Shown here: one piece after another, positions 20,886 through 55,465 of the stretch
How the letters are laid out: the number at the start of each line of letters is the position of its first letter
How positions within the stretch are numbered: the first letter of the stretch is position 1
NCBI RefSeq assembly: GCF_004010195.1
Contig: NC_057746.1
Coordinates: 34,512,096-34,576,095, forward strand
Reading direction: 5' to 3'
DNA from: Chiloscyllium plagiosum
Taxonomy: Eukaryota
Length of the DNA: 64,000 bases
Made by a program: the position numbers and the translations under genes
The notes under the pieces: model-generated
Database searches by the model: none
The model's input: the letters and a program-made list of their open reading frames with translations, nothing else
What the model was told of the DNA's origin: nothing

Positions 20886-21679
20886 ATAATCTGTGATGGT
20901 GCATCCTCTGTCACTAGATAGGCCCAAGACAAAACAAAAACAAATGAATAAAGGTAAAAGACTGCGGTTGCTAGATATCTGAAACATTCTAATGATGGCT
21001 AGTCAATTCTGAATCTCAACACATTGCTCATGCTGTCGGATTATTCTCAATGTCTCCCCGGTCCAGCCTCTCGTGTTTCAAGGGGATTGCCTCATTCTTG
21101 TAAACCAAATTTACTCAGCCTCCCATCACTGTACAATTTTACTGTGTTTTCACTGTCCTAGCTAATAACGATGCATCCATTGACATATGACAGAGTGCGA
21201 AATGATCTCATTCTGATGGGATTTTCTGGTTAGGTTTGAAAGGGCTGTTGTGCCATTCGATTTGTCCCACTCCCTGTGCTTCTGTGTTTGTTCTCTCACT
21301 CGAAATTTACTCCCCTCCGGACGTCAGGATCGGCTGAGTGTGCCTCACATCCTTGAAAACGTCAAATATATTCCTCTTGGTGGTCGGAAAAAGGATGGTG
21401 AGGACAGGGCAGAATCGCTGGCTGTGAATCTACTCCATCCGAAGAAATATTTCAAGATTTCTTTTAAAATTGGTCTGCGTTCTCCACAGAGCGCCTCACG
21501 TCTCATTTAAATAACATAAATATATTAATTTGATCTCCCAAGGGTCATTGAACCCGAAACGGTAACCCTTGTTTCCACAGACACCGCCTGAACTGCTGAG
21601 CTTTTCCATCAAGATTTGTTTGACTTTAACCTTCCGCAGTTCTTTCGATTTTTAAACTCTTTTTTCTGAATATGTCAGT

Positions 21680-21695
21680 GGCTCTGAAAAGAGCC
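21680..21695 (-). terminator. Histone 3' stem-loop of H1-like gene A, followed by HDE
   Basis: GGCTCTTTTCAGAGCC 23 nt after the stop, then ACTGA and purine-rich AAAAGAGTT. Confidence 0.95.
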
Positions 21696-21718: not shown

Positions 21719-22435
21719 TTATTTCCCCCGTTCCCCAGCCCCTGGCTCAGCCTCCTCGGAGCCGCTCTCTCCTGCTCCCGTCTGTGGTTGAGCTTCCTGC
21801 CCCCCGGGCGGCGGCTCAGCGCCCGGCAACGGCTCCTTGGTCGATTTCCGGGCCGCCCGAATGTGACCACCGGGTCTCCGGACCCCGGTCCCTTTGGCCG
21901 CTTTCCTCCGTCCGCCGGCGGCCCTGCCCTTCTTCCGGCCGCCTGGCGGCGGTTTCTTCCTCCGTCCCGGGCTCCTCTTCCTGCCGCGGGTGGTGGCGGC
22001 TTTCCGCTGCCGACCCCGAGACTTGGGGTTAGCGGCGGCCGCTGCTGCTGCCACCGGGCGGTTCTGACCCTCCGGATGGTGCTGCCGGTTGATTTTAAAG
22101 GAACCCGATGCCCCGGCGCCTGCCGTCCGCAGCAGCGAGCCGGTGGACACCAGGCTCCGCACCGCCTGGTTCACCCGCGAATTGATTCGCGGCACGTCGT
22201 AACCGGCGGCCGACAGCGCCTTCTTGACGCCGGCCAGCGAGAGGCCGCGGCGGTCCCGGGAAGACCCCACCGCCTCCAGGATGTGCCCGGACATGGTAGG
22301 AACTCCCCCGCCAGCGGCCGCTACCTGCCGCACTTTGGGCGCGCTCCTCCGCCGCCGCCGCCCCTTCCTGCCCCGGGAATACTTCGGGAGCAGGTCGCCT
22401 GAAGGCTTGGCGATGCCAGGCGTCGGTCTCAGCAT
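21719..22435 (-). CDS. Histone H1-like protein A (238 aa; Arg-rich, intact winged-helix domain, acidic C-terminal end)
   Basis: ILEAVGSSRDRRGLSLAGVKKALSAAGYDVPRINSRV...GAGASGSFKIN is an H1 globular domain; intronless; stem-loop downstream; first in-frame ATG at 22435. Confidence 0.9.
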   Translation of the reverse strand: MLRPTPGIAKPSGDLLPKYSRGRKGRRRRRSAPKVRQVAAAGGGVPTMSGHILEAVGSSRDRRGLSLAGVKKALSAAGYDVPRINSRVNQAVRSLVSTGSLLRTAGAGASGSFKINRQHHPEGQNRPVAAAAAAANPKSRGRQRKAATTRGRKRSPGRRKKPPPGGRKKGRAAGGRRKAAKGTGVRRPGGHIRAARKSTKEPLPGAEPPPGGQEAQPQTGAGESGSEEAEPGAGERGK

Positions 22436-24650: not shown

Positions 24651-25279
24651 CTATTCTTTGGGCCTACACACCAGTGGACTGACCCATTGCAGGGAAAGCA
24701 GTAACGTTAACTGTCTCAAAGTGCACCATTTCCTACCTAAGGACAAAAAAAAACAGAAATTGCTGGAGAAACTCATCAGGTCTGAAGGCATCTGTGCTGA
24801 GAGAAACTGAGTCAACATTTGAATCTAGTGATTCTTTATCAAAAATCTGGCTAGGTGCCATAATTTTCAATATTTTTACAGGCAAAGAGAATCTGTCGGA
24901 TTTGGAAGGCTGAGTTGACAAATGTAATTGAAATATGACAAAGGGAAAACGGGATCTCTAAGGTGGAGTTTTACATTGAGTTACATGTGCCCTGCCTTCA
25001 TCTTTACGTTTAGAGAAATGCCTGCAATATGGCAATGGAACAAAATCACCGTGCCATAGGAATAATGTGTAAATGAAAGGGTAGCTAAATTTTAACCTCT
25101 TTCGTCGCACATGTCTATGAAATTTGACCATATTTGGGATGTTAAATGTAACTAAGGCTTGGTTTCAATACTCAATTACCTAACAGGAGGCATTTTAAAG
25201 ATCTGAAAAAGTATAAATAAAACATTTTATTGATAACAATCTGAAATGCTAATTTTCACACAAAATATCTTTAAAACGC

Positions 25280-25285
25280 TTTATT
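25280..25285 (-). terminator. Candidate poly(A) signal for H1-like B (second AATAAA at 25226-25231)
   Basis: AATAAA ~65 nt past the stop, with TTTTGTGT downstream; the region is AT-rich, so chance is possible. Confidence 0.4.
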
Positions 25286-25350
25286 TTACGATGTGTCTTA
25301 ATACATTTAGTATTTGTATAATGTCCTGTTCAGGGCCCCTTTTTGTGAAG

Positions 25351-26085
25351 TCAAAGGCTCTGAGAAGAGCCGTTTTTATCACACGTCGACTCTCCGCTAT
25401 TGGCTAAGGGACGGGGATTAGGTTCAAGCTGTGGGTGGGTACCGGACTCTTCACCATAACGTTGGGAGCTCGAGTGGATATCAAGTGATTTCTTCATTCG
25501 CGCACCCCTTTTCAAAGCACTCAGTCGTTTCCTACTCTGTGCGGTCCACTTTCTAACTTTTCGGGGCCTGGACGGTCGCTTCACCGTTGCCACCCTCCGC
25601 CGGGCCACTACCCGTCTCCTCCGCCTACGGTTCTGAGGAAATGTTTTCTTAGAGTCTCTCTGAGAACAGGTTTCTAGCTTGCTACTAACTCCTCCACCCA
25701 TACGGGCCAACCTCGATGCACCAATACTGCCCGATGTCTTAACCAGGGGACTTCGTTTAACCGTGTTCCGCATGGCCCGGTTATGCGGCGAGCTGTTGTG
25801 CCCAATGTTACTACCACTGGCCGACAACAGCTTCTTCATAGCAGCCACCGACAAACCCCGGCGCTCTTTATTGGCCGCCACTACTTTCATGATCTGTTCA
25901 GCTACCGTGCAGCCAAACTTCTTGTGACGATACGGTCGGCGCTTCTTCTTCACCGCAACAGCAATATCAAGTACTTCGCCCTCGTCTGGAGGAGGCGGTG
26001 GCGGAGGGGGTGGAGAAGGAGGAGCTGGTGGCGGGGAATCCACTAAAGCGGAAAAATCCAACCCATCCGACTCGGTATTTGCCAT
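25351..26085 (-). CDS. Histone H1-like / protamine-like protein B (244 aa; Pro-rich N-terminus, Arg-clustered tail)
   Basis: TVAEQIMKVVAANKERRGLSVAAMKKLLSASG matches H1 helices 1-2; RRRRRRVVARRR tail; intronless; ORF overlaps its own stem-loop. Confidence 0.8.
   Translation of the reverse strand: MANTESDGLDFSALVDSPPPAPPSPPPPPPPPPDEGEVLDIAVAVKKKRRPYRHKKFGCTVAEQIMKVVAANKERRGLSVAAMKKLLSASGSNIGHNSSPHNRAMRNTVKRSPLVKTSGSIGASRLARMGGGVSSKLETCSQRDSKKTFPQNRRRRRRVVARRRVATVKRPSRPRKVRKWTAQSRKRLSALKRGARMKKSLDIHSSSQRYGEESGTHPQLEPNPRPLANSGESTCDKNGSSQSL
25356..25371 (-). terminator. Histone stem-loop located inside the CDS of H1-like B
   Basis: AAAAAC-GGCTCTTCTCAGAGCC-TTTGA, then HDE-like AAAAAGGGGCCCTG. 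Confidence 0.9.
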
Positions 26086-26183: not shown

Positions 26184-26214
26184 CTTTTTAAAGCCGCGGT
26201 GCGGACCTGGGAGA
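26184..26214 (-). promoter_or_regulatory. H1-like B promoter: H4-box (site II-like) plus TATA-like element
   Basis: TCTCCCAGGTCCGC-8 nt-TTTAAAAAG, collinear with the H4 promoter TCACCCAGGTCCGC-8 nt-TATAAAAAG. Confidence 0.7.
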
Positions 26215-28628: not shown

Positions 28629-29045
<417 letters not shown>

Positions 29046-42498: not shown

Positions 42499-42879
42499 AT
42501 GCCTGAAGCAGCGGCCAAGGGCATGGCGCCCAAGAAGGGTCCCAAGAAAGCGGCAACCAAGAAACGCGTCAAAGGCGAGAAAAAGCGCAAGAAGAGCCGG
42601 AAGGAGAGCTATAGCATCTATATCTACAAGGTACTGAAGCAGGTCCACCCTGACACCGGCATTTCGTCTTCCGCTATGAGTGTCGTCAATTCGTTTGTCA
42701 ACGACATTTTCGAGCGAATCGCCTGCGAGGCCTCCCGCCTCATCCGCTACAGTAAGCGGCAGACTATCTCCTCCCGGGAGATACAGACCACAGTCCGCCT
42801 GCTGCTCCCCGGTGAGCTGGCCAAACACGCTGTCTCCGAGGGTACCAAGGCGGTCACCAAGTATACCAGTTGCAAATGA
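42499..42879 (+). CDS. H2B: Histone H2B variant 1 (126 aa, two cysteines)
   Basis: [23 protein letters not shown]...[26 protein letters not shown]. Confidence 0.97.
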
Positions 42880-44319: not shown

Positions 44320-44775
<456 letters not shown>

Positions 44776-46339: not shown

Positions 46340-46732
<393 letters not shown>

Positions 46733-52917: not shown

Positions 52918-53304
52918 CTAAGCGGAACTGGTGTATTTGGTGACCGCTTTTGTGCCTTCAGACACAGCGTGCTTGGCTAGCTCGCCCGGTAACATAAGGC
53001 GGACGGCGCTTTGAATTTCTCTGGCCGATATGGTCTGGCGCTTGTTGTAGTGAATCAGGTGCGAAGCCTCGGAGGCGATGCGCTCAAAGATGTCGATGAC
53101 GAACGAGTTCATGACATTCATGGCCTTAGACGAAATTCTTGTAGAAGGATGGACCTGGGTCAGCACCCTGTACACATAGGTCGAATAGGTCTGTTTGCGA
53201 GTCTTCTTTCGCTTCTTGGGCGGCTTCTTGCTGACTTTGTTAAGCGACTGCTTCGATGCCTTTCGGGACGCAGCGCTCTTTGCTGCAGCCGCCGACTCAG
53301 GCAT
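52918..53304 (-). CDS. H2B: Histone H2B variant 2 (128 aa, divergent)
   Basis: [10 protein letters not shown]...[27 protein letters not shown]...[24 protein letters not shown]; ATG at 53304. Confidence 0.96.
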
Positions 53305-54663: not shown

Positions 54664-55302
54664 TTAAGAGGTTCTGAGAAGAGCCTTTCGCCGTCCGTCC
54701 TTGGGCCACTGGCTCTGCCTTCTCTGCTTCCGTCCGGCGGACCTGCTTGTGGCTGGCCGGCGAGCGGCGTTTTTCTTCGACTTGGTCGTCAGCCTTCTAA
54801 GAGTTTTCGACGCCTTGGGGTTACGGCGCAACATTTTGGCCGACGCCGTAACTCTTTTCGGAGATCGCCTCCTGACTCCGGACTTTTTCCGGGCTGAACT
54901 CTCCTCCACCTCCCGCTCCTTAACCATTTGGAGGGAGCCGGGGGCCCCGGCATGCGCTGACGGGTTTTTACTGGGCGGCGACCTCACGGTGGACTGGCTG
55001 GACCGGGGGCCGCACCCCTCCACGTCGTAGTTGGCAGCCGAGATGGTCTTCCTCATCATAGTAGCCAAAGTCGCGGGACCCTGGCGGTCTTTGGTAACAG
55101 CCACCGCCTCCAGGATGCGCTCAGCCACCGTGGCAATGGTGGCCGCTTTCTGCGGACGGTAAGCGCTTTTCCGCTTGGTGGCCACGGCGGGGTGAGGAGG
55201 CGGCGCCATGTCGGTGGTCGCGGAAAGGGGCACGCCAACCGGGGTAGCAGTCATTGTCGGTGACGAGTGATTCACCTGCACAGGGGCAACAGCTTCAGCC
55301 AT
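54664..55302 (-). CDS. Histone H1-like / protamine-like protein C (212 aa; strongly degenerate globular domain)
   Basis: TVAERILEAVAVTKDRQG...RKTISAANYDVE resembles H1 helices 1-2; Arg/Lys/Ser tail with SPKR; intronless CpG island; ORF overlaps its stem-loop; ATG at 55302. Confidence 0.75.
   Translation of the reverse strand: MAEAVAPVQVNHSSPTMTATPVGVPLSATTDMAPPPHPAVATKRKSAYRPQKAATIATVAERILEAVAVTKDRQGPATLATMMRKTISAANYDVEGCGPRSSQSTVRSPPSKNPSAHAGAPGSLQMVKEREVEESSARKKSGVRRRSPKRVTASAKMLRRNPKASKTLRRLTTKSKKNAARRPATSRSAGRKQRRQSQWPKDGRRKALLRTS
54670..54685 (-). terminator. Histone stem-loop (one C-A mismatch) inside the CDS of H1-like C
   Basis: GAAA-GGCTCTTCTCAGAACC-TCTTAA, HDE-like AAAAGAAGCT; AATAAA at 54514-54519 further downstream. 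Confidence 0.85.
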
Positions 55303-55367
55303 AAGCGACACCAATTGCAGCTGCGGCACCAGCGTCGCAACAATGAGCCGGAGCGGCGCTAGCGGCC

Positions 55368-55465
55368 ATTTTATGTAGGCGAAAAGCGGACGCCGTAGAG
55401 CCATTCCTCGCGCAGCCGCAGTTGCCGCTGTCCTTTTCACACGCCCACTCCTTGCCCCGCCCCTC
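55368..55465 (-). promoter_or_regulatory. H1-like C promoter: GC box, degenerate H4-box, TATA-like element
   Basis: GGGCGGGG near 55456-55463; CGTCCGC-8 nt-TACATAAAA. Confidence 0.5.

Follow-up and report, generated by a model that had tools for sequence, protein, structure and literature searches.

A divergent shark H1-like gene whose reading frame runs through its own histone stem-loop

In mammals, histone transcripts are cut 5 nt after the stem of the 3' stem-loop, 3'hExo trims the end to 3 nt and TUT7 refills it with U (accessible parts of PMC5066620 and PMC9745837). The first-pass annotation of the locus described here had likewise assumed U7/SLBP-directed cleavage about 5 nt after the stem followed by trimming, which agrees with these sources; the same parts, citing Graves 1987 and Kaygun 2005, state that decay of histone mRNA requires the hairpin to lie close to the stop codon. 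SLBP recognises the second stem G together with the three bases preceding the stem (PMC12775136, accessible part). Dual processing by stem-loop cleavage and polyadenylation is known for H1C and H2AC18, and the poly(A) mRNA of some cluster histone genes retains the hairpin in differentiated cells (PMC5100578 and PMC9756948, accessible parts). According to the accessible text of PMC5100578, low SLBP alone did not cause a switch to poly(A) and differentiation did; the annotation had expected the poly(A) form to be favored in SLBP-poor, post-mitotic or post-meiotic cells. Messages that lack a stop codon are substrates of non-stop decay (PMC10548175, accessible part). In histone mRNA biology it is assumed that a short UTR separates stop codon from stem-loop; the conserved gene described here, H1-like B, breaks this rule.

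We analyzed a window of 64,000 nucleotides of Chiloscyllium plagiosum DNA (contig NC_057746.1, 34,512,096 to 34,576,095). H1-like B is a single-exon reading frame on its minus strand (25351..26085, read from 26085 to 25351) that encodes 244 amino acids, 30 Arg and 22 Lys among them, and ends in NGSSQSL. A histone stem-loop (25356..25371, minus strand) lies within the frame, in codons G239-L244: the sequence GGCTCT-TCTC-AGAGCC at 25371-25356 has 0 mismatches to the histone pattern, which confirms the earlier proposal that the frame reads through a perfect stem-loop, encoded in its last six codons. The five bases 3' of the stem are TTTGA, and the TGA stop (25351..25353, minus strand) occupies positions +3 to +5; it is indeed, as had been claimed, the last 3 nt before the expected U7 cut. 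The loop fits the histone consensus U-Y-U-N, and the pair probabilities of the hairpin, computed in mRNA context, were 0.58-0.70. The Rfam Histone3 match at this site stayed below the gathering score; the threshold was reached at three other sites in the window. The 64-kb window contains 8 matches to the stem-loop pattern where chance would give 0.51, and each of the eight histone ORFs has one of them at its 3' end.

In six of the eight window histone genes the stop precedes the stem by 23-57 nt, the exceptions being H1-like B and H1-like C. Among the histone ORFs examined in the genome, 28 of 31 stop 23-168 nt upstream of their stem-loop, consistent with the premise that the stop normally lies tens of nucleotides before the stem; only H1-like B, H1-like C and a frameshifted H2B (L053) do not. 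The comparison set for the stem-loops themselves was 49 distinct stem-loops at fetched loci (the genome total is 244 pattern matches). Measured against replication-dependent histone genes, H1-like B has the 16-nt consensus stem-loop, and lacks both a stop upstream of it and a 3' flank of the ACC(C)A type.

In run X5, which comes from a separate study under the same organism label, a contig covers 25238-25707 with 0 gaps and 2 substitutions relative to the window, one placed at 25635 and the other at a position that was not displayed. X11 (organism B) also spans the site and was left out of the count, its private differences not being displayed. About 2% of a single-cell poly(A) run (X21) yielded 0 reads from the gene. 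An assembly error at the end of H1-like B was rejected, given the gap-free X5 contig and protein P0002, which has the same end; of the upstream stop or indel that the annotation had named as a possible objection, the indel is absent from the X5 contig. We also considered an out-of-frame TGATAA at 25381-25376 as the true stop, reached by frameshift, and two compensating frameshifts within the genus. Neither is supported: when the gene was aligned to six orthologues with frameshifts allowed, none was introduced.

Downstream of the stop lies an HDE-like purine tract, as had been noted (25328..25342, minus strand, +14 to +28 after the stem). An Rfam search revealed no shark U7 gene (L065, the sole U7 pattern match, was rejected: it has no 3' hairpin and scores 14.3 bits); the Rfam U7 consensus was therefore used. 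Pairing of the tract with this consensus amounts to -10.8 kcal/mol and ranks 22 of 49, an ordinary strength; 7.6% of shuffles pair as well. Two candidate AATAAA signals, both correctly placed by the annotation, start at +71 (25280..25285, minus strand, followed by a T/GT-rich stretch near 25265-25257) and +125 (25226..25231, minus strand, followed by a T-rich stretch). As 11 of 29 histone genes have an AATAAA within 300 nt, the motif is by itself weak evidence. H1-like B carries stem-loop, HDE-like tract and AAUAAA together, as dual-processed genes do.

Around the stem, the three 5' bases (AAC) are common to 10 other stem-loops of the 49, and the A at +5 occurs likewise in 37 of 49. Positions +1/+2 are TT; 41 of 49 stem-loops have AC or GC there. 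A flank of TTT instead of ACC at +1 to +3 may change the action of 3'hExo. A TATA-like TTTAAAA (26186..26192, minus strand) lies 107 nt upstream of the ATG, and the 400 nt upstream of H1-like B lack an H1 box, a CCAAT box and a GC box; in three canonical H1 copies an H1 box is located at -155. SLBP is represented in the genome by two genes with introns and one intronless, degenerate copy (L074-L078; G000:C1, C14, C32).

The layout appears to recur in other sharks. Every window of 157 H1-like proteins was back-translated to the stem-loop, with at most 1 mismatch allowed. Of 102,309 windows, 21 were compatible with a stem-loop and only 4 of these were flush with the C terminus, in 4 of the 157 proteins: the focal protein and those of C. 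punctatum (ending in KTGSSQSL), Heterodontus (RNGSSLSH) and Pristiophorus (HNTGSFQGR). All four share frame 0, and in each the stop starts at +3; all belong to the H1-like B orthologue group. A private stop loss in H1-like B was rejected on the basis of the identical frame and stop in the other three proteins, whose ends also contradict the objection, raised in advance, that orthologues would stop upstream of the stem. Orthologue DNA was examined for two close relatives, the Heterodontus and Pristiophorus hairpins being back-translations from protein; a metagenome scan for orthologue DNA found none. A contig of organism C spans H1-like B and shares the P0002 indels, with stem and stop unchanged among the changes listed. 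The Pristiophorus end implies a U-G wobble, which is also present in a natural copy of the hairpin in this genome (L033), and the L that Heterodontus has at the Q codon would mean that the top base pair is broken or flipped; the inferred Heterodontus 3' flank is the normal AC.

The shark orders diverged well over 200 million years ago, and tail identities among the three orders are 17/85, 15/86 and 31/79. Since the hairpin was kept while the remaining tail is only 17-39% identical, the hairpin in the H1-like B lineage looks to be under selection. The changes within the last six codons (S/F, S/G, L/H/R) are radical in the protein and harmless to the hairpin. In a crude neutral simulation, begun from the H1-like A hairpin and allowing at most one visible stem mismatch, stem and stop were kept in three lineages with p of 0.004-0.0001 at tail-matched divergence, and with p of about 0.03 to 0.002 when only the two orders that had no part in its discovery are counted; tail misalignment would inflate the simulated divergence, and the focal gene was chosen for its perfect stem.

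Elsewhere in the clade the hairpin end is missing. The Heptranchias and Mobula orthologues stop earlier, and the back-translation scan detected no hairpin translation in six other batoids and in Callorhinchus; in view of the earlier stops and of these batoids, much of the clade can do without the layout. In Mobula, the final 16 residues correspond to the Hypanus tail read in a shifted frame (P0011, P0009), with 1 mismatch over 17 codons compared with 10 for the next best match. Of 7 batoid proteins, 5 have K and then G, S or C as their last residues, compared with 2 of 145 other proteins ending in K/N/T plus G/S/C. Such residues could be the translated 5' flank and the opening codon of a stem that was broken by a stop directly behind it; the batoid flank-profile scores are beaten by 1-8 of the 145 others, neither Hypanus nor Mobula conforms, and the rows compared are related to one another. 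No frameshifts are needed to align the H1-like B tails in frame with those of batoids. Further H1-like proteins (P0020, P0030, P0070, P0083, P0093, P0109 and P0122) carry a stem-loop-compatible peptide 7-37 residues before their ends, and are probably copies that lost their stop and continue far beyond the hairpin.

The protein itself matches PF00538 with 27.2 bits (cut-off 22.4; orthologues 26-62, several of them 48-62). The match to the linker-histone globular domain extends over residues 61-124 (25714..25905, minus strand), with helix 3 and wing degenerate. Residues 39-91 (25813..25971, minus strand), which comprise a near-invariant basic motif and the first half of the globular domain, are identical at 49/53 positions in Heterodontus, 43/53 in Pristiophorus and 50/53 in Pristis (81-94% across orders); to judge by these identities, the coding core is under strong constraint. 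A low-confidence structure model (pLDDT 54) contains helices at 61-76, 80-89 and 100-107 and no strands, and Foldseek with this model returned no match at E<=0.001. The tail is basic but does not have the Lys-rich composition of a canonical H1 C terminus (30 R / 22 K, compared with 7 R / 63 K in canonical H1 copies). Five other divergent H1-like genes here are likewise Arg-rich and have normal stop spacing.

H1-like B is single copy in the genome at high identity, with orthologues in 11 further species of elasmobranchs. Together they make up one side of a branch with support 95/89, separate from canonical H1, H1.0-like and other divergent H1-like genes, with a Callorhinchus protein as weakly supported sister. 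The branch is long in Chiloscyllium (0.93), where the globular domain has a degenerate second half. The closest named protein, from Chiloscyllium punctatum, has 1 difference over the first 92 residues; in helix 3 and wing the two congeners differ by indels, which sum to whole codons. Ten orthologue clusters that were looked up had one member each. A search for shark germline H1 in mostly open-access literature, available in part, yielded no description of the gene. H1-like B is an apparently undescribed variant of H1, present across the elasmobranchs and marked by a near-invariant basic motif.

Core histone genes of the window (28629-28940, 42499-42879, 44365-44775, 46340-46729 and 52918-53304) each have a stem-loop at normal spacing. 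We take them to be variants of the canonical sequences, with ENIIRDS in H4, DIHLARR in H3, two divergent H2B and an H2A tail GHPSKVYA, and this small cluster may be a germline-type one apart from the main cluster on C50. An ORF on the plus strand at 14780-15532 matches CALHM (calcium homeostasis modulator; 59.7 bits) and probably represents the first exon of a gene next to the histone cluster. L003 (G000:C37:34588890-34589171) and L002 are further Arg-rich H1-like genes; near its C terminus L003 has a GRPRKY motif, common to P0032, which is presumably AT-hook-like. H1-like A (21719-22435, minus strand) has a near-identical copy, L031, on another contig (G000:C101975), which also carries two Arg-rich H1-like genes, an H2B ORF (208 codons from the first ATG) and a variant H4; this contig is either a duplicate cluster or a haplotig.

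H1-like A and H1-like C served as controls. The stem-loop of H1-like A (21675..21695, minus strand) lies 23 nt below its stop, and its flank, ACTGA, already has a stop triplet at +3 to +5, so that stem-loop plus 5 nt reads GSFQSH-stop. A stop triplet is present at +3 to +5 in 5 of 48 other stem-loops; taken together with H1-like A, this means that the stop position of H1-like B could have arisen by default. The interpretation given in the first-pass annotation is partly supported: the stop-after-stem layout is conserved, the +3 to +5 position needs no special selection to arise, and the OFF switch for a germline-type linker protein stays a proposal. H1-like C (54664..55404, minus strand) reads through its stem-loop in another frame, with the stop at +4 to +6. 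Its stem has one mismatch and pairs at 0.02, compared with 0.58-0.70 for H1-like B, it has lost its Pfam match, and its C. punctatum orthologue ends at KQRR, 17 codons earlier; on this sequence evidence the read-through of H1-like C is a private stop loss. In L053 (G000:C47), a 106-codon H2B-like frame extends 52 nt beyond the start of the stem-loop, and the locus is likely a frameshifted H2B pseudogene.

Our preferred reading, held tentatively, is that H1-like B works as a poly(A)-gated gene, in which the U7-cut and trimmed mRNA would be stop-less and unproductive and the protein would come from poly(A) mRNA. In silico, a +5 end retains the stop and an end at +4 or shorter loses it; thus, the two mRNA forms would not both encode the full protein and its stop. 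This loss, taken together with non-stop decay, the known dual processing of histone genes, the C-terminal frame common to three shark orders and an HDE-like tract of ordinary strength, makes us favor the poly(A)-gated reading. If the shark SLBP/U7 machinery treats the RNA as the mammalian one would, a cut predicted after +5 and a trimmed end predicted at +3 would remove the stop in frame, and the stem-loop product would be destroyed by non-stop decay. Even with the stop surviving, a ribosome running to the end would be expected to strip off SLBP and leave the end unprotected. Use of an AATAAA in differentiated or germ cells would give a polyadenylated message that keeps the stop, and selection would maintain the hairpin for silencing in cycling cells. 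As to origin, an early elasmobranch stop loss may have recruited the old 3' UTR, the frame running on to an existing stop triplet in a flank of the ACTGA/ACTAA type. On the poly(A)-gated reading, U7 processing would be a silencer here rather than a maturation step.

Four other readings were weighed against it. H1-like B could be a poly(A)-only variant on which U7 and SLBP no longer act, the hairpin surviving as a relic through slow shark evolution, peptide constraint or a passive SLBP site. The subthreshold Histone3 score, the unusual TT at +1/+2, the promoter without an H1 box, and the batoid proteins that end at or before the hairpin position, 5 of 7 of them with K plus G, S or C where a stop may have replaced a stem codon, are in keeping with such a relic. 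We consider it unlikely, however, in view of the perfect stem in C. plagiosum, the congener's GSSQSL end, and the at most one mismatch implied in two other orders despite heavily diverged tails; a hairpin that is decaying, that of H1-like C, pairs at 0.02, and the frameshifted tail of Mobula speaks against peptide constraint. Less probable still, in our judgment, are repeated or recent accidents, in which independent stop losses reached a pre-existing flank triplet in a gene that is decaying within the genus. The H1-like A stem-loop with its next 5 nt gives GSFQSH-stop as it stands, H1-like C did lose its stop privately, and helix 3 and wing are degenerate, with indels between the two congeners. 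But the frame is identical across three orders, tails align in frame with those of batoids with no frameshifts invoked, and the congeners have a single amino-acid difference in the first 92 residues, with indels that total whole codons.

The remaining two readings, to which we give the lowest standing, both make the stem-loop mRNA translatable. In mitochondria, polyadenylation can complete a stop, a U plus added A's forming UAA. In silico, H1-like B ends at +0 to +4, when repaired with U to 3 nt and extended with A's, all give QSL-stop, and it is from this identical outcome that a second route to a translatable message, missed by the annotation, arises: after U7 cutting and trimming to 3 nt, an oocyte-like short A tail at the stem-loop end would complete UAA, and only the adenylated stem-loop form would be translatable. 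On this improbable account sharks would for well over 200 million years have kept a gene whose stop is erased by 3' trimming and rewritten as U plus AA by A-tailing, its message destroyed in cycling cells and translatable in germ cells; the cell's 3'-end enzymes would then decide whether a message has a stop codon. Position +3 is the sole one compatible with a 3-nt end, the genome has two intron-containing SLBP genes besides the intronless copy, and H1 mRNAs in Xenopus oocytes have a tail of about 10 A's while keeping their stem-loop (PMC11997800, accessible part). The A-tailed form is, however, silent in Xenopus, the tail being lost at maturation (accessible parts of PMC11997800 and PMC12803260), and a pre-existing triplet also explains the stop position. 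Alternatively, and with as little likelihood, the stem-loop mRNA is itself productive: a +5 cut would keep the stop, TTTGA would escape trimming, and ribosomes would terminate on the last three bases. The stop is indeed the last codon to survive a +5 cut, the A at +5 is the common one (37 of 49), and without 3'hExo about half of the ends stay longer than 3 nt; in the wild type, however, more than 95% of human ends are not longer than 3 nt (both from the accessible part of PMC9745837). The inferred Heterodontus flank is the normal AC, and the ribosome would have to unwind the hairpin and displace SLBP in every round. Termination at a stop with no nucleotides after it is, moreover, expected to be poor. 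H1-like B is a natural test of ribosomes crossing an SLBP-bound hairpin, and also of whether termination can occur at a stop that forms the extreme end of an mRNA.

In the literature searched (mostly open-access, as listings and the beginnings of abstracts), we found no description of a histone ORF that runs through its own stem-loop or of a stop-less stem-loop mRNA. The conserved stop-after-stem layout is real and apparently undescribed, and the mechanism proposed for it is plausible.

Among linker histones, germline and protamine-like variants include H1t, HILS1, H1T2, H1oo and the PL proteins. H1-like B resembles these in being single copy, with a fast-evolving Arg-rich tail and one globular domain; the five other divergent H1-like genes here are, however, also Arg-rich and have normal stop spacing. 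With canonical stem-loop histone mRNAs it shares the 16-nt hairpin, the G at stem position 2 and the A-rich 5' flank (accessible parts of PMC5066620, PMC9745837 and PMC12775136), as well as the A at +5 and an HDE-like tract at the usual distance. In human genes, however, the stop lies 28-67 nt before the hairpin (PMC9745837, accessible part), whereas in H1-like B it lies after the hairpin, with no UTR for UPF1 loading and with a TTTGA flank. Non-stop decay (PELO/HBS1L, SKI-exosome; PMC10548175) likewise has as substrate a stop-less message that ends under the ribosome; as described in the accessible part of this source it is a quality control of faulty messages, whereas here the predicted substrate would come from normal processing of an intact, conserved gene. 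The oligo-adenylated oocyte histone mRNAs of Xenopus with SLBP2 share with the A-tailing reading the addition of A's at the stem-loop end, but there the tail goes with silencing, and the accessible part of PMC11997800 does not describe creation of a stop in nuclear histone mRNA. The dual-processed genes H1C/H1-2, H2AC18 and H2A.X (accessible parts of PMC5100578 and PMC9756948) have a stem-loop, an HDE and a downstream AAUAAA within a histone cluster, much as H1-like B has a stem-loop, an HDE-like tract and AAUAAA. In those genes both mRNA forms keep the stop and encode the same protein, whereas the stem-loop form of H1-like B is predicted to be stop-less, and its layout is plausibly a departure from them.
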